This document shows, in pieces, positions 4,111 to 49,858 of a DNA stretch of 64,000 bases. The position numbers and the translations under genes are program-made. The notes beneath the pieces were generated by a model. That model was not told the DNA's origin. It saw only the letters and a program-made list of their open reading frames with translations, and did not search any database. Origin of the DNA: a virus (lineage: Duplodnaviria > Heunggongvirae > Uroviricota > Caudoviricetes); the IMG/VR virus record IMGVR_UViG_2718218304_000001, positions 32,001 through 96,000 of that record; one strand, written 5' to 3'. The first letter of the stretch is position 1. Each line of letters begins with the position of its first letter.

Positions 4111-6144
4111 TTACTTAACCTGGTGGCCAGGTTTAGCACCGACATCCGGGCTTAACAGGAAGATATCTTTCCCGCCAGGGCCAGCAGCCATCACCATGCC
4201 TTCGGAGATACCGAAGCGCATTTTACGCGGAGCCAGGTTAGCCACCATAATGGTGTGACGACCAATCAGTGCCTGTGGGTCTGGATAAGCAGAACGAATG
4301 CCGGAGAAGACATTGCGTTTTTCACCGCCGAGATCCAGCGTCAGGCGTAGCAGTTTGTCAGAACCTTCTACAAACTCTGCGTTTTCAATCAGCGCCACGC
4401 GCAGGTCAACTTTGGCGAAGTCGTCAAAGGTGATAGTTTCCTGAATCGGGTCGTCAGCCAGTGGGCCAGTTACCGGTGCGGCTGTGGCTTTCACTTCTTC
4501 TTTGGATGCTTCCACCAGTGCTTCAACCTGCTTCATATCGATGCGGTTATACAGTGCCTTGAACGGATTCACTTTATGGCCCAGCAGCGGTTGCTGGATA
4601 CCATCCCAGGTCAGTTCTGTATTCAGGAATGCTTCTGCACGTTCAGTCAGTTTCGGCAGTACCGGCTTCAAGTACGTCATCAGCACGCGGAACAGGTTAA
4701 TGCCCATAGAGCAAATCGCCTGCAGATCGGCATCGCGTCCTTCCTGCTTCGCCACCACCCACGGAGCCTGTTCATCGACATAGCGGTTAGCCAGGTCAGC
4801 CAATGCCATGATTTCACGGATAGCTTTACCAAATTCGCGGCTTTCCCATGCTTCACCAATCACTTCAGCAGCATCAGTGAAGGTTTTATACAGTTGCGGG
4901 TCAGCCAGTTCGCCTGCCAGCACACCGTCAAAACGCTTATTGATAAAGCCCGCGTTACGGGACGCCAGGTTAACCACTTTGTTAACGATATCGGCATTCA
5001 CACGCTGAACGAAATCCTCCAGGTTGAGATCGATATCATCAATACGCGAAGAGAGTTTCGCAGTGTAGTAGTAACGCAGGCTGTCAGCGTCAAAATGATT
5101 CAGCCAGGTGCTGGCTTTAATAAAGGTGCCGCGAGACTTGGACATCTTCGCGCCGTTCACCGTCACATAGCCATGAACAAACAGGTTGGTCGGCTTGCGG
5201 AAGTTGCTGCCTTCCAGCATGGCAGGCCAGAACAGGCTGTGGAAGTAAACAATATCTTTACCGATGAAGTGGTACAGCTCGGCGGTGGAGTCTTTCTTCC
5301 AGTATTCATCGAAGCTGGTGGTATCGCCGCGCTTGTCGCACAGATTCTTGAAGGAACCCATGTAGCCAATCGGCGCGTCCAGCCAGACGTAGAAATATTT
5401 GCCCGGCGCGTTCGGAATTTCAAAACCGAAGTAAGGCGCATCGCGGGATATATCCCACTGTTGCAGGCCGGATTCAAACCATTCCTGCATTTTGTTCGCC
5501 ACCTGCTCCTGCAACGCGCCGCTGCGGGTCCATGCCTGCAACATTTCGCTGAAAGAAGGTAGATCAAAGAAGAAGTGTTCGGAATCACGCATTACCGGGG
5601 TAGCGCCAGAAACCACCGATTTCGGCTCGATCAATTCAGTCGGGCTATATGTTGCGCCGCAGACTTCACAGTTATCGCCGTATTGATCTGGCGCTTTACA
5701 TTTCGGGCAGGTGCCTTTTACAAAACGATCCGGCAGGAACATGCCTTTTTCCGGGTCGTACAACTGAGAGATAGTGCGGTTTTTAATAAAACCGTTCTCT
5801 TTCAGGCGAGTATAGATAAGCTCAGACAACTGACGGTTCTCTTCGCTGTGCGTCGAGTGATAGTTGTCATAGCTGATGTTAAAGCCTGCGAAATCAGTCT
5901 GGTGTTCCTGACTCATTTCGCCAATCATCTGCTCCGGTGTGATACCAAGCTGCTGTGCTTTCAGCATGATCGGCGTACCGTGGGCATCGTCGGCACAGAT
6001 GAAATTAACCTCGTGGCCGCGCATTCGCTGGTAACGAACCCAGACATCAGCCTGGATGTGCTCCAGCATATGGCCGAGGTGGATTGAGCCGTTAGCGTAC
6101 GGCAGCGCGCACGTCACCAGAATTTTCTTCGCGACTTGGGTCAT
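4111..6144 (-). CDS. metG: methionyl-tRNA synthetase
   Basis: Translation starting [29 protein letters not shown] matches E. coli MetG over its full 677 aa as I recall it; the ORF-track start at 6273 is an upstream in-frame extension. Confidence 0.95.
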
Positions 6145-6301
6145 AGTAGGCATTACTTCTTTGTAGTGAAAAGGGGCTTGATAGTAACAAAATGGCCTTA
6201 TGTCTGCCATGTGATAACAGCATTTCTCATAAATGATTAAATGTCGTAGCTGGAGTACACTACAAGGCGACAATTGCGCAAATTAAAATAAAGGAGACGG
6301 G

Positions 6302-8530: not shown

Positions 8531-10093
8531 ATGAAAATGACAAGTATTCAACAACGTGCAGAGCTTCATCGCCAGATCTGGCAAATTGCTAACGATGTCA
8601 GGGGTTCAGTCGATGGATGGGATTTTAAGCAGTACGTTTTGGGCGCGCTTTTTTACCGTTTTATCAGCGAAAATTTTTCCAGTTATATTGAAGCCGGTGA
8701 TGACAGTATCTGTTATGCGAAACTGGATGACAGCGTAATTACTGATGACATTAAAGACGATGCCATCAAAACTAAAGGCTACTTCATCTACCCCAGTCAG
8801 CTTTTCTGCAACGTAGCTGCGAAAGCAAATACTAATGACAGACTGAATGCAGATTTAAACAGCATCTTCGTTGCTATCGAAAGTTCTGCTTACGGTTATC
8901 CTTCAGAAGCTGACATCAAAGGTTTGTTTGCTGATTTCGATACCACCAGTAACCGCCTGGGTAACACCGTTAAAGATAAAAATGCCCGCTTGGCTGCGGT
9001 TCTGAAAGGGGTTGAAGGGCTAAAACTTGGTGACTTCCATGAACATCAGATTGACCTGTTCGGTGACGCCTATGAGTTCCTGATTTCTAACTATGCGGCG
9101 AATGCCGGTAAGTCCGGCGGCGAGTTCTTTACACCGCAGCACGTCTCTAAGCTGATTGCACAACTGGCTATGCACGGGCAGACCCACGTTAACAAAATCT
9201 ACGACCCGGCAGCAGGCTCCGGTTCGCTGTTGTTGCAGGCGAAAAAACAGTTTGATGACCATATCATCGAAGAAGGTTTTTTTGGTCAGGAAATCAACCA
9301 TACGACCTATAACCTGGCGCGTATGAACATGTTTTTGCACAACATCAACTACGACAAGTTTGATATCAAGCTGGGTAATACACTGACTGAGCCGCACTTC
9401 AGAGATGAAAAACCGTTTGATGCCATCGTTTCTAACCCGCCGTATTCGGTGAAATGGATTGGCAGCGATGACCCGACGCTGATTAACGATGAACGTTTTG
9501 CCCCGGCTGGCGTTCTGGCCCCCAAATCCAAAGCTGACTTTGCGTTTGTATTACATGCGCTGAACTATCTTTCGGCCAAAGGTCGCGCTGCGATTGTCTG
9601 CTTCCCAGGCATTTTTTACCGTGGCGGCGCGGAGCAGAAAATCCGTCAGTATCTGGTCGACAATAACTATGTCGAAACCGTGATTTCACTGGCACCGAAT
9701 CTGTTCTTTGGCACCACTATTGCCGTCAATATTCTGGTGCTGTCTAAACATAAAACGGATACCAAAGTTCAGTTTATTGATGCCAGCGAACTGTTCAAAA
9801 AAGAGACTAACAACAACATTCTGACCGATGCTCATATCGAACAGATTATGCAGGTATTTGCCAGCAAGGAAGATGTTGCTCATCTGGCGAAATCTGTTGC
9901 GTTTGAGACTGTTGTCGCGAATGACTATAACCTGTCGGTGAGCAGCTATGTGGAAGCGAAAGATACTCGCGAAATTATCGATATCGCTGAGCTGAATGCT
10001 GAGCTGAAAACCACGGTCAGCAAAATCGACCAGTTGCGTAAAGATATTGATGCGATTGTTGCTGAGATTGAAGGTAGCGAGGTACAGGCATGA
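8531..10093 (+). CDS. hsdM: type I restriction-modification methyltransferase subunit HsdM (type IC, EcoR124I-like)
   Basis: NPPY motif ([10 protein letters not shown]) and AdoMet-binding DPAAGSGS; sequence matches my recollection of EcoR124I HsdM. Confidence 0.9.
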
Positions 10094-11337
10094 GCGAGCT
10101 GAGTTATCTGGAAAAACTGCTGGATGGGGCTGAGGTTGAGTGGGTAGCATTAAATAAATTAGCAACTTTTTTAAAAGGGAAGTCTTTACCTAAAGAAAAA
10201 ATAACTCCAGATGGCAATAGATATTGTATTCATTACGGTGAGCTTTTCACTCATTATGGTCCCATAATTGACAAAGTATGCTCAAAAACAAACCAAGCAA
10301 TCAATGAGTCAATTCTATCTGAAAAAAATGATGTTCTAATGCCAACGTCAGACGTTACACCAAGAGGTTTGGCTACAGCTAGTTGCATTCAAGAAAGTGG
10401 CGTTATTTTAGGCGGCGATATTTTGATTATTAGATGCTCTGGTGTTGATGGTAGATATCTAAGTAATTTCATAATAAATAACAAAAAAAAGATATTGCAA
10501 ATGGTTAAAGGTTCTACTGTTTATCATTTGTATGCTAAAGATATAGGTAAATTACTTATCCCCATCCCTTGCCCCAACAACCCGGAAAAGTCGCTGGCTA
10601 TCCAGTCTGAAATCGTCAGGATTCTGGATAAATTTACTGCACTTACCGCTGAGCTTACCGCTGAGCTTAGCATGCGTAAAAAACAATACAACTACTATCG
10701 CGACCAGTTGTTGAGTTTTAAAGAGGGTGAGGTTGAGTGGAAAGCTTTGGGGGAAATTGGTGAAGTTCGTATGTGTAAACGAATCCTAAAATCACAAACA
10801 TCTTCTGAGGGAGAGATTCCATTTTATAAAATTGGGACATTTGGTAAGGAACCCGATTCCTATATATCTAGAAAACTATTTAATGAATTTAAAGAAAAAT
10901 ATAGTTATCCTAAAGTTGGCGAAGTATTGATTTCTGCCAGTGGGACCATCGGCAGGACTGTTATATTTGATGGTAGGGAATCATATTTCCAGGATAGCAA
11001 TATTGTCTGGATTGAAAATAATGAAAAAATAGTTTTAAATAAATATTTATTCTATTTCTATAAAATAGCAAAATGGGGAATATCTGAAGGTGGAACTATT
11101 AAAAGACTTTATAATGATAACTTAAGAAAACTTATGATACCAGTACCATTTCCTGATTCTCCTGAAAGATCGCTAGTTGAACAACAAAAAATAGTGAAAT
11201 TACTGGATAAATTTGATGCTTTGACCAATTCCATCACCGAAGGTCTTCCGCGTGAAATCGAGTTGCGCCAGAAACAATACGAGTACTATCGTGATTTACT
11301 GTTCAGTTTTCCCAAACCTGAAACTATCAGTAACTAA
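10090..11337 (+). CDS. hsdS: type I R-M specificity subunit HsdS (type IC)
   Basis: ATGA start/stop overlap with hsdM; two AT-rich target-recognition domains around a conserved central region with a TAELTAEL repeat. Confidence 0.85.
10642..10668 (+). repeat. 12-bp tandem repeat x2 (CTTACCGCTGAG) in the hsdS central region, encoding TAEL-TAEL
   Basis: Read directly; this repeat number is known in the EcoR124I/II family to set the spacer length of the recognition site. Confidence 0.8.
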
Positions 11338-11458
11338 TTGACCATTGCTACCGACCGGATCACCTTAACATCCGGTCTATATAGAGACTATTTTTTACAC
11401 GCCGGAAGTCGCCCTTAAAGCCCTTCCGGCCCTTGCCAGACGGCACAAAGGATGCGCT

Positions 11459-14400
11459 ATGACTCATCAGACACACACCATTGCTGAATCCAATAACTTT
11501 ATCGTTCTTGATAAGTACATCAAAGCCGAGCAAACAGGCGACAGCTACCAGAGCGAATCGGACCTGGAACGTGAACTGATTCAGGATCTGCGGAATCAGG
11601 GCTATGAATTTATTTCCGTAAAATCTCAGTCGGCGATGCTGGCCAACGTTCGGGAACAGCTTCAGAACCTCAATGGTGTGGTGTTTAATGACAGCGAATG
11701 GCGGCGTTTCACGGAGCAGTATCTGGATAACCCGAGCGATGGCATCCTGGATAAGACCCGTAAAATCCATATCGACTATATTTGCGACTTTATTTTTGAT
11801 GACGAGCGTCTTGAGAACATCTATTTGATAGATAAAAAGAATCTCATGCGCAACAAGGTGCAGATTATCCAGCAGTTTGAACAGACGGGTTCTCATGCTA
11901 ACCGTTATGACGTCACGATCCTGGTTAATGGCTTACCGCTGGTACAAATCGAACTGAAAAAGCGCGGCGTGGCGATTCGTGAGGCCTTTAACCAGATACA
12001 TCGTTACAGCAAAGAGAGTTTTAACAGCGAAAATTCTCTGTTTAAGTATCTGCAACTGTTTGTCATTTCCAACGGCACCGATACCCGTTACTTTGCCAAC
12101 ACGACAAAGCGCGATAAAAACAGTTTTGACTTCACCATGAATTGGGCGAAATCAGACAACACGCTGATTAAAGACCTCAAAGACTTTACCGCCACCTTTT
12201 TCCAGAAACATACCCTGCTTAATGTCTTAGTGAACTACAGCGTATTCGATGTTAGCCAAACGCTACTGGTGATGCGACCGTACCAGATTGCCGCCACTGA
12301 GCGCATTCTGTGGAAAATTAAGAGTTCCTTTACAGCGAAGAACTGGTCAAAACCGGAAAGCGGTGGGTATATCTGGCACACTACCGGTTCAGGTAAAACC
12401 CTCACCAGCTTTAAAGCCGCGCGTCTGGCAACAGAGCTGGACTTTATTGATAAAGTCTTCTTCGTGGTCGACAGGAAAGACCTCGATTACCAGACCATGA
12501 ATGAATATAAGCGTTTTTCGCCAGACAGCGTCAACGGCTCGGAAAATACCGCAGGTCTTAAACGCAATCTGGATAAGGACGATAACAAAATTATCGTCAC
12601 CACTATTCAGAAACTTAATAACCTGATGAAAGCAGAAAGCGACCTGCCTGTATACAATCAGCAAGTGGTGTTTATATTTGATGAATGTCACCGCAGCCAG
12701 TTTGGAGAAGCGCAGAAAAACCTGAAGAAGAAATTCAAACGCTATTATCAGTTTGGTTTTACCGGCACACCTATTTTCCCGGAAAACGCCTTAGGCTCAG
12801 AAACGACCGCCAGCGTATTTGGTCGTGAATTGCATTCGTATGTAATTACCGATGCGATTCGTGATGAAAAAGTGCTCAAATTCAAGGTGGACTACAACGA
12901 TGTGCGGCCACAGTTTAAATCTTTAGAGACAGAAACCGACGAGAAAAAACTGAGTGCGGCTGAAAATCAGCAGGCATTTCTTCATCCCATGCGTATACAG
13001 GAAATTACGCAATATATTCTGAATAACTTCCGCCAGAAGACCCACCGTACTTTCCCAGGTTCCAAAGGCTTTAATGCCATGCTGGCAGTGAGTAGCGTGG
13101 ATGCCGCGAAAGCCTATTACGCGACGTTTAAACGGTTACAAGAGGAAGCAGCTAATAAATCGGCTACCTATAAACCGCTGCGTGTTGCAACAATCTTCTC
13201 CTTTGCCGCCAATGAAGAACAAAATGCCATTGGTGAAATTTCCGATGAAACTTTTGATACCAGCGCAATGGACAGCAGTGCTAAAGAGTTTCTTGACGCT
13301 GCAATTCGTGAGTATAACAGCTATTTTAAAACTAACTTCAGCACCGACAGTAACGGTTTTCAGAACTACTATCGTGATTTAGCCCAACGGGTTAAAAATC
13401 AGGATATCGATCTGTTAATTGTCGTTGGGATGTTTTTAACCGGCTTCGACGCTCCAACATTGAACACGCTATTCGTCGATAAAAACTTGCGTTTTCACGG
13501 CCTGATGCAGGCATTCTCCCGTACCAACCGCATTTATGACGCTACTAAAACCTTCGGTAACATCGTCACTTTTCGGGATCTGGAACGCTCAACCATTGAT
13601 GCCATAACGCTGTTTGGTGATAAAAATACTAAAAATGTGGTGTTAGAAAAGAGTTATGCTGAGTATATGGAAGGCTTTACAGATGCTGCCACTGGTGAAG
13701 CTAAACGCGGCTTTATGGCAGTAGTTTCAGAACTGGAACAACGGTTCCCTGACCCTGCCAGTATTGAAAGTGAAAAAGAGAAGAAAGACTTCGTAAAACT
13801 GTTTGGTGAATACCTGCGTGCCGAGAACATCCTGCAAAACTATGATGAATTTGCCACGCTGAAAGCCCTGCAACAAATCGATCTTAGCGATCCTGTTGCG
13901 GTAGAAAAATTCAAAGCAGAACATTATGTGGATGATGAAAAGTTCGCTGAATTGCAAACAATTCGTCTCCCTGCTGAACGCAAGATTCAGGATTATCGTT
14001 CTGCCTATAACGATATTCGCGACTGGCAGCGCCGTGAGAAAGAAGCTGAGAAAAAAGAGAAATCAACCACTGACTGGGATGACGTAGTTTTTGAGGTCGA
14101 TTTGCTGAAGTCTCAGGAAATAAACCTGGATTATATCCTTGGACTGATTTTCGAACACAACAGACAAAATAAAGGCAAGGGCGAAATGATCGAAGAGGTC
14201 AAACGCTTAATTCGTTCAAGCCTGGGGAACCGGGCGAAAGAGGGCCTGGTGGTCGATTTTATTCAGCAAACGAACCTGGATGATTTACCAGACAAAGCCA
14301 GTATCATTGAGGCATTCTTTACGTTTGCTCAACGCGAACAGCAACGTGAAGCAGAAGCATTGATAAAAGAAGAAAATCTCAATGAAGAGGCGGCGAAACG

Positions 14401-14575
14401 CTATATTCGCACGTCTTTAAAACGCGAATACGCCACCGAAAATGGCACAGAATTAAACGAGACATTACCAAAACTTAGTCCGTTAAACCCGCAATATAAA
14501 ACGAAAAAACAGACCGTTTTCCAGAAAATCGTCACGTTTATTGAAAAGTTCAAAGGAGTAGGTGGGCAGATATAG
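11459..14575 (+). CDS. hsdR: type I R-M restriction subunit HsdR (helicase-nuclease)
   Basis: 1038 aa; Walker A TGSGKT and DECH box; only a 120-nt gap after hsdS. Confidence 0.9.
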
Positions 14576-31495: not shown

Positions 31496-33401
31496 AGCTG
31501 CGCCCCTCTTTAACTTCCAGCGTAATAGTTTCCCGGAACCACGACTTCATCTCTTTATGGGAGATAATCAGCACAGTACCTCGCTCGCGAGCTTTGGACT
31601 CCAGAATACCCATGAGGCGTTCAAGACCGGCTGTATCGAGTGCATCGTCAATTTCGTCGCCGATAAACAAATCGATGTTTTTACTCGCCCGGTTACTAAC
31701 CAGATCCTGCAATGCCAAAGAACACGCAATGCGAACCTTCCGCTTCTCACCACCAGAGAGGGTTTGGAACGACTTACTTGAACCTTTCTTCTGCACACTA
31801 ATGTTGAATTTGTCGCGATACTCACCTTTTTTAGTGACATCCATCGTCGACCACTCAGCAGTAATATTCCCGTCAGACAACGTATTGAGATACTCGGCAG
31901 TGCGTGTATTCAGGAAAGGCGTAACAGACGTCAAAATATGAGAACGCACCCCGGCAGGAGAGTAGACCTGACGAGCTTTTTCCAATAGCAACGTTTGTTC
32001 CTGAATAGCCTTCAACTCATCTTTTAAGGACTTGAAGGTAGACTTACTGGATACCAGGTTATCTTCGTGTCTGGCGATAAGAGCAATAAACGGATTAATC
32101 TCTTTTGATATACGATCGACCTCAGTACGAGCACGAGTCACAAGAGACTCAATAGCAACAACCTCCTTCTCACGATGACGCAAAGATGAGAGTTGTTTCG
32201 TAAGCTCTTCAATCCGGGCAATGATAGCCGTTACATCAGGTGTCGTTTTAACAAGGGCAGACTCAATGCTTAACGCTTTCTCAAGATTCGTTTTGTGTTT
32301 AGCCATTGCCTCTGCAAGTGTCTTCGCCTGACCAATTTCCTGACGTGCTTGTTCAATGAAATTCTCCTTCACCGTTGATAGATCTTCTTCGCAGTAGGCT
32401 TTGCCACAAGTAGGGCATGGTGATCCCACTTTAGTACCAACCTCTTCTGCTTTGGTCTTAAAATTACGCGCGCGGTTCATTGCATCAGCCTGACTATTTT
32501 CTGTAGCTTTGATGCTTGCCCGAATATCAGTTATCGCACCACGAACTTTGAGCAACTTGGCGTCATGTTCTTCTTTTGAGGCTAACTTTTTGCGCTCACT
32601 TTCGATTGCCTTCTCGGTATCACGTATCTGTTCGGGAAGAGTGCGGATCTCAAGTTCAACTTCCGTTAACTCAACTTCGGCACTGGCCAGCCCAGCCAGG
32701 GCATCGTCATAACGTTTAGAACGCTCTTGCTCCCATGATTCAGAGGAGGCTTTCGCTGACTCAATTTCTGACTGTGTTGCCTCAATGGTCGAGATTGTCG
32801 ACTCCAATTTGGTTTTAACCACATCCATACGTGCGGCAGCTGCATTAGCTCGCTCACGAGCAATAGCGTAGGCGCGTGTCAGTCTGTCAACGCCAGCGGC
32901 TTCTTCTACGATGGTTTTGAGGTTTTTGTCGGACATTCCAGGTAAATCTGGCATAGCTTCTTGGCTCGCATAGATGGAAGCCATGAAAACCTCTTTAGAT
33001 GCACCGATCAGACGCTCGACGAACTCCTGCGTCAGCGCATCTTTGCCTTTCGTCATATCGCCATCTTCACCACGAACGATAAGACGATTTTTGAACTCTT
33101 TGTGTTTACGGTGACGAATGATTGCGTATCTCTTGCCTTCATCCTCGATGGTTACTGCAACACGACAGTTCTTTTCATGGTCGGTAGACAACACATCGTC
33201 ACCCTTCACACCATGAGCTGTTTCGCCATAAAGACACCACATCAGGCTATTCATTAGAGTTGACTTTCCAGAGCCATTACTTGATGCGGAACTATCATCA
33301 CTATTAACACCCTGAATGAGCACTAAACCACGCTGATCTAACTCGACCTCCGCGCTGGCGATAGCCATAAAATTCTCAACCTGGAGCTTTAAAAACTTCA
33401 T
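31485..33401 (-). CDS. SbcC/Rad50-like ATPase (recombination nuclease subunit)
   Basis: N-terminal Walker A GVNSDDSSASSNGSGKST, long coiled-coil middle, C-terminal LSGGE signature. Confidence 0.8.
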   Translation of the reverse strand: MKFLKLQVENFMAIASAEVELDQRGLVLIQGVNSDDSSASSNGSGKSTLMNSLMWCLYGETAHGVKGDDVLSTDHEKNCRVAVTIEDEGKRYAIIRHRKHKEFKNRLIVRGEDGDMTKGKDALTQEFVERLIGASKEVFMASIYASQEAMPDLPGMSDKNLKTIVEEAAGVDRLTRAYAIARERANAAAARMDVVKTKLESTISTIEATQSEIESAKASSESWEQERSKRYDDALAGLASAEVELTEVELEIRTLPEQIRDTEKAIESERKKLASKEEHDAKLLKVRGAITDIRASIKATENSQADAMNRARNFKTKAEEVGTKVGSPCPTCGKAYCEEDLSTVKENFIEQARQEIGQAKTLAEAMAKHKTNLEKALSIESALVKTTPDVTAIIARIEELTKQLSSLRHREKEVVAIESLVTRARTEVDRISKEINPFIALIARHEDNLVSSKSTFKSLKDELKAIQEQTLLLEKARQVYSPAGVRSHILTSVTPFLNTRTAEYLNTLSDGNITAEWSTMDVTKKGEYRDKFNISVQKKGSSKSFQTLSGGEKRKVRIACSLALQDLVSNRASKNIDLFIGDEIDDALDTAGLERLMGILESKARERGTVLIISHKEMKSWFRETITLEVKEGRSYVV

Positions 33402-38704: not shown

Positions 38705-39130
38705 TCAATCTTCTTGTTTAGGGAAAAACTGTTCAATAACTCTGTCAACGGCTGTGTCTATATGGAGTAGATGCCACACAACCATATCTTTGCTTCCCAT
38801 GCCTTGTGTGAATATCACGTCATACTTACGCCATGCGCAGTGGAACCAATATGCTGAGTCATCAATTGGTAAATCCTCTCCCGCCTCTTTGAAGTATTTC
38901 AGCAGCATTGCCTGCTCTGCCGTTGGCGTTGGACCTATTTCCTGAGCGTACATACGGATGAATCGCTGCCAGTCTGTCTCGTCGGGGGTTGGATCTGGTG
39001 GGGTCATTTCTGCGATAGCGTTTCGTAGCTGATGCGCCCAATCAGGTTCAGGAAAGCCTTTTGCTACTTCATCATCAATAACATCCAGAGCCACGTTTGC
39101 GGCATCGTAGAGTTTCTTAATAGCTGTCAT
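38705..39130 (-). CDS. hypothetical protein
   Basis: ORF track; motif-1 and AAGGAT immediately upstream. Confidence 0.35.
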   Translation of the reverse strand: MTAIKKLYDAANVALDVIDDEVAKGFPEPDWAHQLRNAIAEMTPPDPTPDETDWQRFIRMYAQEIGPTPTAEQAMLLKYFKEAGEDLPIDDSAYWFHCAWRKYDVIFTQGMGSKDMVVWHLLHIDTAVDRVIEQFFPKQED

Positions 39131-39209
39131 GTTTTCTTATCCTTTTAAACAAATTGTTTTCTTAATAAGATAATTGCGATAAAAAAGGCGTCCTGTGGAC
39201 GCCTTGTGT

Positions 39210-41549
39210 TTACTCTTCTACTGACTCGGTGGGGTTGTCTTTTGCTCTTCGGTCGTCGATTGCCTGCAAAGCCGCAATGATTTCAGCCAGTGGCTTCTCC
39301 CGATACATCTCGACGATCTGCGATTTGGTGTATTTCTTGTCACCAATTTCAACTCGCCCGCTGGCGTTCTTTGGCAGGTATCCTTCTTCCAGCATGTACT
39401 CGACGAGCGATTCGATAACGTCGAGGCCACGAGTAGGATCGAAGTAGAATTTCCAGGTGCATTTGCCATACGGTGGTGCAACTTTGTTTTTGATGCATTC
39501 TGCGCCTACGTCCTGGCCGATCTTCTCTTTACCATCCTTCATCACCGATGCACCAAGACGGATACGTACAGAAGCGTAGAACTTCGGTGAATCTCCACCT
39601 GGCGACGTAGTAGGGTCGCCAAACATTACACCGATTTTTGTGCGAACCTGATTCAAGAAGATGATGCAGGCGTTGTATTTGCGTGCCCACAAAGCCAGAG
39701 TAGGGAAGTTCGCACTCGTCGCACGAGCCAGTGCCGTATTGTCGTTCATGTTTAGCTGATCTTTGTCTTTGGCAGTGCCTTCAGCCATCTTTTCGAACTT
39801 CTCGGCTTTGGAGTTCGGAACCATAGACGCAAGAGAGTCAGCCACGATACAGATAGGTGCTGATTCGGGGATAAGCTCTTCATCACGAACCAATTTAAGT
39901 ATTGTGCCGATCAACTCTACAGAGTCTTCGAAGGTATCTGGCTGCTTGTATACCCACTGACCGTCGTCTTCGTCGGCGTTCAGTCCGTTCGCTACCGCCA
40001 GACCAACGTCGAAACTGTTTTCGTGGTCAAGGAATACGGCCAGACCATCCTGTTTTTGTGCTGACACCATCGCAGCCGTCGCGAGGAATGTGTTGTGGCT
40101 GATAATCCCGTTAGACCAGAAAGAGTGTGTTTCCGGCATCGCTACGTCGAACGTTGGTGCTTCACCTTCCTCAATAGCCACGACTTCGTCGTAGAACAAG
40201 TTAGAGTCAATTACCGCTGCCAGTTGTGCAAACAGATGCTCGTTAAAACGATTCTTTCTGCCAATGAAGGAGACATAGATTTCTCGCAGTTTGTCTATTC
40301 CGACACGATCGCCGCGGCCAATAACGTGATCTACCAGAACGTAGTCTTTACGAGAGGTCTTGGTGAGTGACTCGTAGAGTGATTTCACTAAGCCGCTGAT
40401 GTGCGGAACGTAGCCTAAATAAGTGCGGTCAAAACTAATGTCCCGTTTGGTTGCCACTGCTAAACGAGCCGGAGACTCGAACCCAATCGTTGACAGGAAA
40501 AGGTCGTAGTTAGAGCCACTGAATGACAGCCGGTAATATATGTTTTTATAACCTGCGACGTGTTTTTCAGAGATAGTTGACGTAATCCCCAGATTCAGGA
40601 GCATGAGGCGAATTTGCTGTAGCAGCAGCCCACTCGCGCTCACAACCTCAATGCAGCGACCATCATTGACGTGGCATTCCAGCTCAAAGTAGCCGCGAAG
40701 GAATGCAATTTGAGCCTCGCTATTGGCGCGACGCACACTCAACGGAACCTGCTTGCCAGCAGCTTTCTCATACTCCAGACCATATTCTTTAAAAAGCAGC
40801 GAACGCACCTCTTTGCTAAACAGCACATGGTCTTCCGAGCCGTTATGTTTTCTCGTAACTGGCATCTTGTCTGATACCAGCGAAATGAGGCGGTAGTACT
40901 CATCCTTGATGAAAGGATCTGTGTTAGAAAAATTCACTGAATTTTCAGAGGCCACGTATCCGTCAGCAATTAAATAGCCCATCAGTTTTGCGATATTGGC
41001 ATCCAGGTGCTGATCGCCGAATTGATGTGTGCCAACCATTGAAGGAATCGTGTCGCCTACACTGATTTTTTCAGCATGTCGCCAGACGACATTACCTAAG
41101 TCGTCAACCACACGGATTGGGTGACGGAACGTAGCCTCGATATAACCGCCTGATGCCAGCTTAATACGCTTGAATTTGCGACGGTTGTTCCATGTCAGGT
41201 GTGAGGTCTTCTCTATCACGCCATTTTCATTGATGAGTCCAACGTTATGCTCTACATCGCGAGTAGTGCATGTCGCTTTGTACCCTTCAATCTCAAACAA
41301 CTCTTTCACTGTTACCATTCCACGCTCCGTCAGCAGCATGGTGTCTGCGGTAACACATTTCCCCGCGCTTGGTGGCCCGAATACTTCTACGATACGACCA
41401 CATGGGAAACCGCCATCGTAACGACCGGAAATAGCTTTGTTTAACGGAGGAAAGCCTGTGTCAATCCAATGAGTTACTTTCTGAATTTCGTCGTTGCTAC
41501 CGATTTTCTTTTTCAGAGCAAGTGCCAGTGCGGATTTTCCTTTTGCCAT
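39210..41549 (-). CDS. RecA/UvsX-like recombinase interrupted by an intein
   Basis: Exteins total ~357 aa and read GRIVEVFGPPSAGK|T...FLNQVRTKIGVMFGDPTTSPGGDSPKFYASVRIRLG, paralleling RecA (GRIVEIYGPESSGKTT...[32 protein letters not shown]). Confidence 0.8.
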   Translation of the reverse strand: MAKGKSALALALKKKIGSNDEIQKVTHWIDTGFPPLNKAISGRYDGGFPCGRIVEVFGPPSAGKCVTADTMLLTERGMVTVKELFEIEGYKATCTTRDVEHNVGLINENGVIEKTSHLTWNNRRKFKRIKLASGGYIEATFRHPIRVVDDLGNVVWRHAEKISVGDTIPSMVGTHQFGDQHLDANIAKLMGYLIADGYVASENSVNFSNTDPFIKDEYYRLISLVSDKMPVTRKHNGSEDHVLFSKEVRSLLFKEYGLEYEKAAGKQVPLSVRRANSEAQIAFLRGYFELECHVNDGRCIEVVSASGLLLQQIRLMLLNLGITSTISEKHVAGYKNIYYRLSFSGSNYDLFLSTIGFESPARLAVATKRDISFDRTYLGYVPHISGLVKSLYESLTKTSRKDYVLVDHVIGRGDRVGIDKLREIYVSFIGRKNRFNEHLFAQLAAVIDSNLFYDEVVAIEEGEAPTFDVAMPETHSFWSNGIISHNTFLATAAMVSAQKQDGLAVFLDHENSFDVGLAVANGLNADEDDGQWVYKQPDTFEDSVELIGTILKLVRDEELIPESAPICIVADSLASMVPNSKAEKFEKMAEGTAKDKDQLNMNDNTALARATSANFPTLALWARKYNACIIFLNQVRTKIGVMFGDPTTSPGGDSPKFYASVRIRLGASVMKDGKEKIGQDVGAECIKNKVAPPYGKCTWKFYFDPTRGLDVIESLVEYMLEEGYLPKNASGRVEIGDKKYTKSQIVEMYREKPLAEIIAALQAIDDRRAKDNPTESVEE
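40092..41357 (-). mobile_element. intein (422 aa) with LAGLIDADG homing endonuclease, inserted in the P-loop of the RecA-like gene
   Basis: Starts with Cys right after GPPSAGK, ends ...IISHN followed by Thr; internal LMGYLIADGYV and FLRGYFELECHV blocks. Confidence 0.75.
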
Positions 41550-41551
41550 GA

Positions 41552-41824
41552 TCAGGCTCCTTTTGTTTCGTTGATTCGTTTTAAAGCGGCGGATTCGTCG
41601 AATACAATCGCATCGTGATTAAGGAGTCTGGATACACGAGCGAGGATTTTTACGACCTGCTCGCTGACTAATCCAAACTCGCGATCTGTCGCTTTCATTC
41701 CGGCAGCGCCTAGAATTGACGGCAGTGCGATGACAGCGTACTCACCGTGATAAAAGACAATCTCTTTTGCCAGTTGGGTGGGGGTGGTTGTAGCGCCATT
41801 AATAATCGATTTAAGCATTAGCAA
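41552..41824 (-). CDS. hypothetical protein
   Basis: ORF track only. Confidence 0.3.
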   Translation of the reverse strand: MLMLKSIINGATTTPTQLAKEIVFYHGEYAVIALPSILGAAGMKATDREFGLVSEQVVKILARVSRLLNHDAIVFDESAALKRINETKGA

Positions 41825-46351: not shown

Positions 46352-49300
46352 TTACTTATTTATTGTCTCCGCGATATCAGCCAGAATGGCCTCCAGTCGC
46401 TCTCCTTCTTCCGGTCGGAAGTACAGGATATTCGGGTTAAATCCGTAGAAGACGGTTGCATCAAGCTCTGGGAAGTACTCCTTACGACCAATCAGATCTG
46501 ATGGTTTACTCTTATTGTTAAATAGTGCGGTTGAACGACTACCACACGTCAAAATGTAGGTTGGTCGTACAAGATTAATTTCTTCCCGCATAAAGTCTGT
46601 GAACTGGCCTATCTCGTCTTTGGTATAGTCTTTCTCTTTGTCCTTAACCTTCTTACAAACACCCGTGACATAAAGATCGCCCATGCGCAGATCTCCAACT
46701 GTCAGTAGTTTTGCCTTAAAGTCGTCGTATCCGTTCTCCATGAAGTAGCCGGTACGAGCGTCATTGCCGTTCGCATTGTCCAGAATGATCATGATTTTGG
46801 GTTTAATACCAATAGTCGGGCGTATCAACTCCTCACCCAAGCCCATTTCATCCGCCATACGTGTCATGAGTACGTTGATTTCGGCAGAACGCTTAGGATT
46901 CATTTCGAACGGACGTGATGCTTTAACAGCGTCAATGATGAGATTGCCCATCAGCTCAGCCTGGTCGCGCAGTCGTTCAGGATCAGTTGCTGGCAGACTG
47001 CCTGGCTCAATTGACGCAAAAGCCCCTACTTTATGAAGCGACTCGCGTACACGACTGTTACATGCACGCTTCTCGACCGCTTCATCGAATTGTGCCACTG
47101 ACTCGAATTTGCCACCAACTTTCTCACGCGCACGCATAATTGCCTGACAACCATTTTCAGAACAGCCTTTCACAGCAGAGAATGGCGCATACAGTGCCTG
47201 ACTGCCGTCTTCGAGTGTGCGGATCTCAATTCGGTTAGATGACACATTAACGTCTGGTGGCAATACGCGAATGCCATAGGTCAGCGCATCCTTCACCAGC
47301 CCCTGATGCTTATCCTCGCCCAGAATGGTGAGCGCAGCTGCGAAGAACTCAGCAGGGTAGTGCGTCTTTAGCCACATAGACTGATAACTGATTAAAGAAT
47401 AAGCAACGGAGTGTGATTTATTGAAGGCATATCCACCGAACTTCTCAAAGGCGTCCCATATTTCTTGGGCTTTTTCCTTACTGAGACCTTCTTGTTCAGA
47501 GACGATCTCCACGTAGTCTATGCCGTCACTAATAGCCTCGCTGTAGCTTCTACGCTTACCGTCTGAGCAATCCAGTTTTGCGTGTTTGTGAACCTCTACA
47601 GTACCTCCATTTTTGAGTGACAGTGTCACCCAGCCTGCTTGTGCTCGTTCTACAAAATCGCTGCCGATCGCTTTCATCTTATCCATGTTCTTTTTACCGA
47701 TAGCGGAACGCAGAGCGTCTGCTTCGGCCATAGAGAACCCGGCAAGTACTCGGGAACTTTGCATGATTTGTTCCTGATAGAGCAAAACACCATTAGTCTC
47801 CCGGGTGACTTCCTCAAGACGCGGATGAATTGAATGTGGAGCCATGAAGCCTTTGGCCACGGAGACATAGTCGTCCAACATGCCGGATTGGATCGGGCCA
47901 GGTCGGAAGAGTGCGGTCGTGGCGACAACGGTTTTAAAGCTCATTGGCTCAATGCCACCGCCTAGATCTTTAAGCAGCTTGCGCATGGGGCCGGACTCCA
48001 GCTGGAATACGCCCTGTGTATACCCTGCAGCAAAACCATCCAGCACCTTGCGATCTTCAAGAGAAATGGCATCAAGATTGATATCTTCACCTGTGTTCTC
48101 TTTTATGTAGCGTTTTGCACTATCGAGCAAATCGAGAGTTGCCAGGCCAAGCACGTCCAGCTTAATTAGGCCCATAGCCTCGCAGTAACGCTTATCAAAT
48201 GCGATACAACGCGCGTCACCACGGCGCTCAACCGGTGTACGTTCTGTCAGAGGAACACCTGCTACAATCATCCCTGCCGCATGTCTACCAAAGCCACGCA
48301 TAAGGCTTTGTAACTTGCAGGCTGCATTGAATGCATCAGGATATTTTGTTGCGTATTTGTCGAGACTTGCCAGTTGTTCGCGCAGCTCTTCCAATGGAAG
48401 GCTATCATCCTCGACGTTCTTCAGTTCTTTTGATACCGCCATATCTGCGGACTCCACACCATAAATACGAGCGGTGTCACGTAGTGCAGAGGCTGCGCCC
48501 AGGTAGGTGAAGTTCGGAATGCCTGCAACGTAATCTTCGCCGTAGCGTTCATTCAGATACTCGATCACCTCATGGCGACGTGCCTGGCTGAAGTCCAAAT
48601 CCGCATCTGGCAAGTCGAGACGCTCAGGGTTGATGAAACGTTCAAACAGAAGACCGTGACGGATAGGGTCGACGTTGGTTATGCCTATGCACCATGCCAC
48701 CAAAGAGCCAGCGGAGGAACCACGACCAGGCCCGACAGGAATGCCAGTTTCACGGCTGTGATTCATCAGATCGCGTACCATCAGGAAGTAACCACAAAAT
48801 CCCAGGCGAGTAAGCGTGTCCATTTCGTACTTAAGTCGCTCAACATAAACCCTGTTCTCAGAAGCCGGTGGTGTGTATCCAAACTCTTTTGTGGTAAGAC
48901 GTTTACGCAGCCCTGCAACAGCCAGTTTCATCAGCGTTGCAGGTTCGTCGTCTGCCATCTTGGGCAGTGCTGGTGGCAATTCATGCCAGCGCCATGTACA
49001 GGCTTCGATAATGGAGTCCTGCGTTGTTGAGGCCATTGCAGCTGTTACCGGCACATCCATGCGAACGGAGAAGGCTTTAAGCGCCTCAAGGAGATGGCGG
49101 CGACCATTGACGGCGTTATCTCGCTGGTGGGGTATACGCAGACGATGCGGCTGGTCGATTTTTATGTTGTTCGTAACCATGTGCGCAATGTCTTTAATGT
49201 CTGCATCGTCGATCGATTCGTAATAAGCGGGATAGAACGCTACTGGCTCTATTTTCAGTGCGCTGGCTACTTTCATCGCTCGGACGTTAATCTGGTCGTA

Positions 49301-49858
49301 GAATGGGGTAGGGTGCGGATAAACCACGCTATAGAAGTTGTCTTTCCCGCCCGCTGTAATCAGTGAGCTTATGATTTTTGCAAAATCGTTGCGTTGGAAC
49401 ACGCTACCGATGTCGGAAGTGAGCAGGATGATGTTGCCTTTGGCATATGTAGAAACCAACTGTTCGAGCGAGAGACGCGGTACAAAGTAGAACTGTTCTC
49501 GTGTGTTGGCCACCGTCATTAGTTCGCAGATGTCGCGATATCCTTGCTCATTTTTAATTAGAGCGGTAAACGAGTAGTTACGTCCCCGCTCTAATGATTC
49601 CATACATCTCATAGATTCTTTAGCAAGTTTAGCCCGGTGCTCGTATGTGGGATCATCAACGATATTTAGTTTCACACCACAAATAACCGCCATGTCGTCA
49701 CCAGCGGCACGTTGTAGTGGAATAACACTCGCAATATTCATGCTATCTGCTGAAATTACAGCGGTGTAGCCAGCTTCTCTGGCAATCTTCACCGCGTTTT
49801 CTGCTTTTAGAGCCGACTCCCCAAGTGAGAAGTCAGTTCGAACCATCAGTGCTTTCAT
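46352..49858 (-). CDS. DNA polymerase III alpha-type (DnaE-like) replicative polymerase with PHP domain
   Basis: GPGRGSSAGSLVAWCIGIT and FNKSHSVAYSLISYQSMWLK signatures; the C-terminal ~190 aa does not resemble the host DnaE C-terminus. Confidence 0.85.
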   Translation of the reverse strand: MKALMVRTDFSLGESALKAENAVKIAREAGYTAVISADSMNIASVIPLQRAAGDDMAVICGVKLNIVDDPTYEHRAKLAKESMRCMESLERGRNYSFTALIKNEQGYRDICELMTVANTREQFYFVPRLSLEQLVSTYAKGNIILLTSDIGSVFQRNDFAKIISSLITAGGKDNFYSVVYPHPTPFYDQINVRAMKVASALKIEPVAFYPAYYESIDDADIKDIAHMVTNNIKIDQPHRLRIPHQRDNAVNGRRHLLEALKAFSVRMDVPVTAAMASTTQDSIIEACTWRWHELPPALPKMADDEPATLMKLAVAGLRKRLTTKEFGYTPPASENRVYVERLKYEMDTLTRLGFCGYFLMVRDLMNHSRETGIPVGPGRGSSAGSLVAWCIGITNVDPIRHGLLFERFINPERLDLPDADLDFSQARRHEVIEYLNERYGEDYVAGIPNFTYLGAASALRDTARIYGVESADMAVSKELKNVEDDSLPLEELREQLASLDKYATKYPDAFNAACKLQSLMRGFGRHAAGMIVAGVPLTERTPVERRGDARCIAFDKRYCEAMGLIKLDVLGLATLDLLDSAKRYIKENTGEDINLDAISLEDRKVLDGFAAGYTQGVFQLESGPMRKLLKDLGGGIEPMSFKTVVATTALFRPGPIQSGMLDDYVSVAKGFMAPHSIHPRLEEVTRETNGVLLYQEQIMQSSRVLAGFSMAEADALRSAIGKKNMDKMKAIGSDFVERAQAGWVTLSLKNGGTVEVHKHAKLDCSDGKRRSYSEAISDGIDYVEIVSEQEGLSKEKAQEIWDAFEKFGGYAFNKSHSVAYSLISYQSMWLKTHYPAEFFAAALTILGEDKHQGLVKDALTYGIRVLPPDVNVSSNRIEIRTLEDGSQALYAPFSAVKGCSENGCQAIMRAREKVGGKFESVAQFDEAVEKRACNSRVRESLHKVGAFASIEPGSLPATDPERLRDQAELMGNLIIDAVKASRPFEMNPKRSAEINVLMTRMADEMGLGEELIRPTIGIKPKIMIILDNANGNDARTGYFMENGYDDFKAKLLTVGDLRMGDLYVTGVCKKVKDKEKDYTKDEIGQFTDFMREEINLVRPTYILTCGSRSTALFNNKSKPSDLIGRKEYFPELDATVFYGFNPNILYFRPEEGERLEAILADIAETINK

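Follow-up and report, generated by a model that had tools for sequence, protein, structure and literature searches.

A 64,000-nucleotide (nt) stretch of Caudoviricetes DNA (positions 32,001 to 96,000 of IMG/VR record IMGVR_UViG_2718218304_000001; hereafter the window) carries a recombinase gene whose ATP-binding P-loop is interrupted by a 422-residue insert, predicted with a probability of about 0.9 to be a class 1 intein with a LAGLIDADG homing endonuclease of the double-motif type inside it. The architecture of the insert is far beyond chance. Judged by its sequence, the host protein is a phage-type RecA-like recombinase and not a cellular RecA, and the window is part of an SSU5-type phage-plasmid of about 110 kb. 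Comparison with other carriers suggests that the intein has spread laterally in recent time, probably driven by its endonuclease.

Layout of the precursor gene

The precursor is identical to the RefSeq protein WP_073503563.1 and is covered from end to end by phrog_9666, which PHROG labels 'unknown function'. An earlier reading of this DNA from its letters alone (the sequence-only reading) had described a 779-residue open reading frame (ORF) at 39210..41549, strand unstated, in which GPPSAGK is followed by Cys65, a 422-residue insert ending in His485-Asn486, and Thr487-FLATAAM, and had proposed that the flanking exteins rejoin to ~357 residues. The ORF list and the translation agree with every coordinate of this description, including 40092..41357 for the insert, and place the gene on the minus strand; the rejoined exteins comprise 357 residues with a predicted mass of 39.0 kDa. 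The features are:

39210..41549, minus strand: precursor ORF of the intein-containing RecA-like recombinase, 779 residues, 86.7 kDa (ORF list and translation)
41557..41562, minus strand: Shine-Dalgarno-like AAGGAG, 7 nt 5' of the ATG, seen in the sequence; putative function
41358..41549, minus strand: N-extein, residues 1-64, with Walker A GPPSAGK at its C-terminal end
41358..41378, minus strand: GPPSAGK, residues 58-64, aligned to GPESSGK of E. coli RecA
40092..41357, minus strand: intein, 422 residues (precursor residues 65-486), 47.7 kDa, Cys1 to His421-Asn422
41022..41357, minus strand: Hint N-terminal lobe, approximately intein residues 1-112 (limits approximate), matched by TIGR01445 and β-rich in the model
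40203..41021, minus strand: LAGLIDADG homing-endonuclease domain, approximately intein residues 113-385 (Pfam LAGLIDADG_3, alignment and Foldseek)
40959..40985, minus strand: LAGLIDADG motif 1, LMGYLIADG, intein residues 125-133, putative catalytic Asp132
40674..40703, minus strand: LAGLIDADG motif 2, FLRGYFELEC, intein residues 219-228, putative catalytic Glu227
40092..40202, minus strand: Hint C-terminal lobe, approximately intein residues 386-422, with blocks F/G PTFDVAMPETHSFWSNGIISHN
39210..40091, minus strand: C-extein, residues 487-779 and stop codon, beginning with Thr+1
40089..40091, minus strand: Thr+1 codon ACA, which completes Walker A GKT
39966..40089, minus strand: patch of foreign silent polymorphisms of CT29/Enterobacter type, C-extein +3 to +126

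The two LAGLIDADG blocks noted earlier, LMGYLIADGYV and FLRGYFELECHV, begin at precursor residues 189 (intein 125) and 283 (intein 219), respectively.

The insert has the sequence and predicted fold of an intein

The sequence-only reading had proposed a profile search of residues 65..486, and this gave significant Hint-domain matches, both above cut-off: Pfam Intein_splicing across residues 73-486 (45.2 bits against 35.8; Pfam thresholds are curated gathering cut-offs) and NCBIfam TIGR01445, intein_Nterm, at residues 65-147 (35.5 bits against 24.5). Pfam LAGLIDADG_3 matched in two stretches (64.8 bits against 22.5; E 8.9e-18). When the insert alone was searched against the sequences of the PDB, it matched PI-PkoII, two V-ATPase (VMA) inteins, a DnaB mini-intein and PI-PfuI, and its Hint C-terminal lobe matched the C-terminus of the DnaB mini-intein 4o1r. 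An AlphaFold model of the intein, built from an alignment with nine relatives, had a predicted local distance difference test score (pLDDT) of 79.3 and a predicted template modelling score (pTM) of 0.85. The top full-length Foldseek matches of this model were the TliVMA intein (E 2.6e-19, template modelling score 0.67), PI-PfuI, PI-PkoII and PI-SceI; at the level of domains they included many mini-inteins, among them the Pyrococcus horikoshii RadA intein (4e2t), and I-DmoI for the endonuclease, with many solved inteins matched at a probability of 1.00. Sequence profiles and predicted fold thus bear out an intein with Cys1, a terminal His-Asn, a +1 Thr and two LAGLIDADG blocks.

The residues expected to carry out splicing are conserved in relatives at 28-45% identity. 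Cys1 of block A (precursor Cys65) is kept in all aligned relatives; block B contains T76-x-x-H79 in ATFRHP (intein residues 75-80), with AT-x-NHP at the same column in relatives; H485-N486 is followed by T487, where relatives read SHN|T or NHN|T/S; and blocks F/G are nearly invariant even among distant relatives. In the endonuclease, motifs 1 and 2 (LMGYLIADG and FLRGYFELEC) align with LLGYYVSEG and FLEGYFIGDG of PI-PkoII, and D132 and E227, each at position 8 of its motif, align with the acidic residues of the PI-PkoII motifs.

A tblastn search of the intein against the whole window returned the intein itself only, and Pfam found no Hint or endonuclease domain in ten other large ORFs of the window (ribonucleotide reductase, Pol III alpha, SMC-like protein, type I restriction-modification proteins, methionyl-tRNA synthetase and others). 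Repeats were sought as a possible sign of transposition, or as a cause of an inversion in one of the copies described below (plasmid pYLPI6a); no inverted repeats were found within or flanking the intein, and direct repeats occurred at chance level only.

The host protein is a phage-type recombinase

Pfam RecA matched the precursor with 126 bits (cut-off 27; E 2.4e-36), its best stretch covering residues 484-703, and the best PHROG function for the host protein was 'UvsX-like recombinase' (phrog_97, E 1.2e-83). Against RecA structures the spliced protein gave E-values down to ~1e-35 per single-copy chain. The bacterial RecA equivalog TIGR02012 scored 133 bits, below its cut-off of 325.3. The spliced extein GRIVEVFGPPSAGKT aligned to GRIVEIYGPESSGKT of E. 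coli RecA, with GPPSAGKT over GPESSGKT, and because of this alignment the insertion is placed between the Walker A Lys and Thr, which we take to be K72 and T73 in E. coli RecA numbering. The Pfam and PHROG matches and the RecA alignment of the spliced extein together sustain the earlier assignment to a RecA/UvsX-type recombinase with RecA-like blocks on both sides of the insert. The ratio of nonsynonymous to synonymous divergence (dN/dS) in the exteins is ~0.014.

Natural intein-less alleles have the predicted spliced junction

Seven natural intein-less alleles, from Salmonella phage SSU5, Escherichia phage CMS-2020a, two Klebsiella phage-plasmids and three more E. coli plasmids, read GPPSAGK|TFLATAAM with no residue gained or lost. 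Their sequence across the site is exactly GPPSAGKTFLATAAM, the predicted spliced product, and the proteins are 357-358 residues long. A 1-kb probe centred on the empty site was unbroken in 128 complete E. coli genomes and broke at its centre (positions 497-503) in the remaining E. coli carriers. Homologous elements, in which the sequence-only reading had advised looking for such alleles, therefore contain them with the exact junction predicted.

The intein is widespread on SSU5-type phage-plasmids

The first 20 kb of the window is ~99% identical to E. coli plasmids. The neighbourhood of the recombinase gene (recA), with a RepB-type initiator, a gp32-like single-stranded DNA-binding protein, a 5'-3' exonuclease and Pol III alpha, matches that of phages Cyrano, PhiR41_1 and SSU5. 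Among 5,426 complete E. coli genomes the recA locus was found in 247-248, on a plasmid every time, and 118 of these carriers have the intein. In PLSDB the recA region occurs in 721 plasmids and the intein in 246, from eight genera: Escherichia (121), Klebsiella (71), Enterobacter (41), Citrobacter (6), Shigella (2), Cronobacter (2), Kluyvera (1) and Salmonella (1), with one further record from an 'uncultured bacterium'. The Yersinia plasmids in this set lack it (0 of 63).

The earlier expectation that inteins are essentially absent from E. coli chromosomes holds for this one, none of its 119 matches being chromosomal, with the qualification that the host element is a phage-plasmid. Its companion, that inteins are uncommon in enterobacterial elements, fails here: about half of the E. 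coli SSU5-like phage-plasmids carry the intein, as do the 246 PLSDB plasmids of eight genera.

RefSeq names WP_073503563.1 'LAGLIDADG family homing endonuclease', and its cluster at 90% identity has 1,496 members. The Prokaryotic Genome Annotation Pipeline (PGAP) names most copies as endonuclease only, and the Enterobacter and Citrobacter copies as 'intein-containing recombinase RecA'. One cluster member of identical length is recorded on a 2.72-Mb contig, which would imply chromosomal integration or mis-assembly; no chromosomal copy occurs in the 5,426 complete E. coli genomes.

Allele comparisons point to recent and repeated acquisition

Between the window and Klebsiella phage p4727, identity is 98.7% for the intein, which includes more than 600 nt without a difference, against 79.7% and 81.9% for the two exteins of the same gene and 65-80% for neighbouring genes. 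Synonymous divergence (dS) is 0.046 for the intein and 1.95 for the exteins. We extended the comparison of exteins and inteins to 17 alleles. The exteins fall into lineages with 80-87% mutual identity (E. coli; Klebsiella; SSU5/Enterobacter/Citrobacter/CT29; Cronobacter; and mosaics), and in each of the E. coli, Klebsiella and SSU5-type lineages alleles with and without the intein occur side by side, their exteins 97-99% identical; the single Cronobacter allele sampled is intein-plus. One variant of the intein, the K-type, occurs in plasmids of Klebsiella, Enterobacter, Cronobacter and E. coli CT29; its copies there differ at no more than 4 of 1,266 nt, and the exteins of these plasmids at 147-178 of 1,050 nt.

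Silent markers are linked to the junctions. In the pairs p4727/1825 and M21170/CMS-2020a the only differences near the junctions are silent and lie at -7, -4 and +3. The pair ET350/pSLy3 has 24 silent differences from +3 to +126 and is identical downstream save at +690, with four further differences at -52 to -103. The Thr+1 codon is ACA in all ten intein-plus alleles, and ACG or ACC in all seven that are intein-less.

A second intein variant, in E. coli 2014C-3307, is 92-95% identical, with a dS of 0.24 from that of the window. Relative to it, dN/dS is 0.10 for the whole intein and 0.12-0.13 for the endonuclease domain, and the cores of the LAGLIDADG motifs are unchanged in all sampled variants; by these ratios the endonuclease domain is under purifying selection. 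Taken together, the contrast in divergence, the junction-linked silent markers and the selection indicate several independent, recent and precise acquisitions of the intein, the pattern expected of homing. The endonuclease is accordingly likely, on these comparisons, to be active at present and to be driving the spread.

The window gene is itself a mosaic. By a parental-segment scan it is APEC-type over gene nt 12-967, CT29-type over nt 996-1584, which take in the 3' part of the intein and C-extein +1..+126 (44 informative sites), and E. coli-type over nt 1599-2337 (120 informative sites). Within the C-extein, 28 informative sites in a row are donor-type and the more than 100 that come next are recipient-type, the E. 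coli lineage resuming from +141. The +3..+126 patch was considered as an unambiguous homing footprint, a reading undone by the same scan, in which the patch starts inside the intein.

Two intein-less E. coli plasmids, pAVS0575-B and that of Res13 (L019 and L020), carry an SSU5-like silent run, ACC TTT TTG GCA ACG, at the empty site on a haplotype that elsewhere resembles intein-plus MS 145-7. This pattern could reflect loss of the intein by gene conversion, or a target variant resistant to the endonuclease.

Rearranged and degraded copies

In E. coli pYLPI6a (L006 3001-4013) the intein is inverted relative to both flanks over its central 1,013 bp (window 40267-41279), and the gene is destroyed. 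The window sequence has no inverted repeat at the inversion breakpoints, and either a genuine rearrangement or a faulty assembly could account for the inversion. E. coli pHS30-1 (L005 2092-3383) has the last 383 nt of the intein fused to the C-extein, and H150, H179 and H180 have similar remnants (243 or 584 nt in other matches); these remnants adjoin an IS3 transposase on larger cointegrate plasmids and look like degraded copies. In E. albertii p3RM15115 (L012 1189-2958), a 62-kb derivative plasmid, the intein is intact and divergent (92.9% nt identity), and the alignment of the C-extein ends after precursor residue 590, leaving the recombinase truncated.

Predicted splicing and homing, and alternative explanations

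We infer both splicing and target cleavage from the comparisons above, the splicing steps being those of the standard class 1 pathway. The 86.7-kDa precursor would be translated, and Cys65 would then attack in an N-S acyl shift at Lys64-Cys65. The thioester would be handed to the side chain of Thr487 (+1), after which Asn486, helped by His485, would cyclise and free the 47.7-kDa intein. An O-N shift would complete the 39.0-kDa recombinase with an intact GPPSAGKT loop, the ligated junction being predicted as ...SAGK-TFLATAAMVSAQK; without splicing there would be no ATPase site. In homing, the free intein or the precursor would cut the intein-less recA of related phage-plasmids sharing the cell, and repair from the intein-plus copy would copy in the 1,266-bp element together with a few to ~130 nt of flank. 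That splicing takes place is very probable.

Several observations weigh against an intein that splices and homes as proposed. Motif 2 ends in Cys (ELEC) and not in Gly, Thr is the least reactive of the permitted +1 nucleophiles, and confidence in the model is low over residues 134-143, 164-175 and 345-349. The 17 alleles are a small, non-random sample out of more than 700, and one flanking haplotype typical of intein-plus alleles also occurs in intein-less AVS0575. Since the patch in the window starts inside the intein, it could equally stem from ordinary recombination between two intein-plus plasmids.

This last point also bears on a different account, in which the intein is genuine and splices, its endonuclease is inactive, and it spreads through homologous recombination of the ordinary kind among phage-plasmids that share a cell, perhaps with this very recombinase as the catalyst. 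Two recombining intein-plus alleles would explain the window patch from the intein interior to C-extein +126; the APEC-type intein is likewise a mosaic of two intein variants, and the recA exteins of pSLy3 and ET350 are also mosaic. Decay does occur in the lineage, given that the distant same-site relatives P0007, P0010, P0013 and P0014 have lost the endonuclease. We nevertheless consider this account unlikely. The exchanged segment ends at most 9 nt from the intein boundaries in several independent backgrounds, and such repeated tight boundaries are not expected from ordinary random recombination; in addition, the endonuclease has a dN/dS of ~0.12 with both putative catalytic acidic residues intact, and a nearly identical copy is present in about half of the E. 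coli alleles and in eight genera.

An active intein might do more than home. That it is homing through the SSU5-type phage-plasmids of Escherichia, Klebsiella, Enterobacter, Citrobacter, Cronobacter and others, and also serves its carriers as a weapon that cuts the recombinase gene of rival co-infecting phage-plasmids and/or as a switch that gates the recombinase, is a speculative combination that we regard as rather improbable; if true, it would provide a natural intein and homing system in genetically tractable E. coli. The switch taken by itself, that is, conditional splicing (by redox state, temperature, metal ions or single-stranded DNA) tied to the lytic or lysogenic state, is compatible with the splicing and homing proposed here. 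The case for it is one of analogy: P-loop RadA inteins splice conditionally through intein-extein contacts (PMC5790916, PMC4760082), and from the sequence Cys1 and several other cysteines (intein residues 30, 228 and 235) could be redox-sensitive. However, about half of the otherwise near-identical plasmids have no intein, which argues that it is not needed for regulation, and recent spread leaves little time for co-adaptation; co-option of this kind is therefore doubtful.

Finally, it is very improbable that the insert fails to splice and is a tolerated domain insertion, or part of a dead recombinase ORF kept as a homing-endonuclease gene, as the PGAP/RefSeq name 'LAGLIDADG family homing endonuclease' on most copies might suggest, given that every splicing residue is present and conserved, that an unspliced 422-residue insert inside Walker A GKT would abolish ATP binding, that all 11 full-length intein-plus ORFs retrieved are intact (a twelfth copy with an intact intein, from E. 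albertii, is truncated by plasmid deletion), that the older intein variant (dS 0.24 from that of the window) sits in an equally intact gene, and that the exteins evolve at the low dN/dS given above.

Neighbouring genes

Between the DUF7238 gene (38705..39130) and recA, at ~39131-39209, many relatives, SSU5 among them, have an extra ~1.14 kb with a small ORF and an SPFH/band-7 gene. The segment is missing from the window and from the APEC plasmid and constitutes a second presence/absence polymorphism adjoining recA. The Pol III alpha gene (46352-49858, minus strand, 1,168 residues) is intact in the window; in pEND_Eco 14033-3 (L022 1347-2296) a ~950-bp insertion that carries a free-standing HNH endonuclease ORF interrupts it near residue 781, and DNA identity is 89.9% on the N-terminal (5') side of the insertion and 98.9% on the C-terminal side. 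An intein is ruled out for this insertion by its own ORF with stop codons, and Rfam gave no intron match for it. Also encoded in the window, and shared with relatives, are a metG-like methionyl-tRNA synthetase of full length (4111..6273) and the complete hsdM/S/R set of a type I restriction-modification system (8531..14575).

Significance

The insert is of a conventional kind, a class 1 intein that bears a LAGLIDADG endonuclease and occupies a classic site; it is already in databases and poorly named there, and to intein biology it adds nothing conceptually new. What is new is its host element and population biology: a widespread enterobacterial phage-plasmid, carriage of ~50% in E. coli, and clear signs of recent spread between genera. 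A literature search found no paper on an intein in SSU5- or pHCM2-type elements, with many subscription papers outside its reach, and apparent matches cited engineered toxin-inteins. To our knowledge, E. coli is generally regarded as intein-free, and it is the standard host for intein engineering. By the sequence comparisons made here, a natural, probably active intein on a phage-plasmid would be present in ~2% of complete E. coli genomes and in many clinical isolates of Klebsiella and Enterobacter.

The roughly 1:1 occurrence of intein-plus and intein-less alleles on near-identical backbones offers a convenient natural system, in a host that is easily handled, for measuring homing, co-conversion and the gain and loss of inteins. 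It also suits the question of whether splicing limits the recombinase of these plasmids, some lineages of which carry resistance genes. Meanwhile, the RefSeq name masks a recombinase gene in hundreds of plasmid annotations.

Relation to known inteins

About 70% of inteins reside in ATP-binding proteins, and the P-loop site described as 'classic' is the one that separates the invariant Walker A Lys from its nucleophilic Thr (PMC5050341); the K|T insertion found here agrees with the earlier description of the P-loop as a classic intein target. Inteins are known from RecA of Actinobacteria, Cyanobacteria and Proteobacteria (PMC4760082), and archaeal RadA carries P-loop mini-inteins (PMC5790916).

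The nearest relatives outside the plasmid group are metagenomic RecA inteins with 41-45% identity, followed at 31-34% by inteins in RecA and helicase genes of Herelleviridae phages of Bacillus, Staphylococcus, Listeria and Enterococcus. All RecA-hosted relatives examined, including that of Bacillus phage fHSPT3, sit at GK|C...HN|T/S. These same-site inteins (fHSPT3 and metagenomic P0004-P0014) are homologous to the one in the window, with 28-45% identity and an identical position, GxxxxGK|C...HN|T/S, and several share the LAGLIDADG_3 domain, others having a degenerate endonuclease or none. They differ in their distant sequence and in their hosts, which are Firmicutes phages (Herelleviridae) or uncultured organisms; the literature search found no publication on the intein of the window. 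Among them, the RecA P-loop inteins P0007, P0010, P0013 and P0014 have a degenerate or reduced endonuclease, and P0007 lies on a 550-kb contig, probably in a cellular RecA. Relatives with a degenerate endonuclease fit later stages of the usual intein life cycle in the same lineage.

The RadA inteins of P. horikoshii and Thermococcus sibericus likewise interrupt a RecA-superfamily recombinase in the P-loop of its ATPase domain (PMC5790916), and their Hint fold matches our model (4e2t); unlike the intein of the window, they are archaeal mini-inteins without a homing endonuclease, and their conditional splicing is temperature-dependent. PI-MtuI of Mycobacterium tuberculosis, which was described before any other bacterial intein, is also a LAGLIDADG-bearing intein in RecA (PMC5050341). 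It is, however, chromosomal and actinobacterial, and it occupies another insertion site, roughly 180 residues downstream, as placed by the alignment of the window C-extein to model positions 71-253. PI-MtuI has Cys+1, whereas the window intein has Thr+1. The Mtu-type family NCBIfam NF007072, 'intein-containing recombinase RecA', was rejected for the window protein, which scores 100.8 bits against a cut-off of 1024, aligns over the RecA part only and has a different site. Mycobacteriophage TerL1-a and other 'classic' P-loop inteins differ in host protein (a terminase for TerL1-a) and belong to actinobacterial phages. Finally, PI-PkoII, PI-PfuI, TliVMA and PI-SceI, the best matches among solved structures, share a Hint domain interrupted by a LAGLIDADG domain, but at 10-21% identity and in different hosts, namely DNA polymerase, ribonucleotide reductase and V-ATPase.

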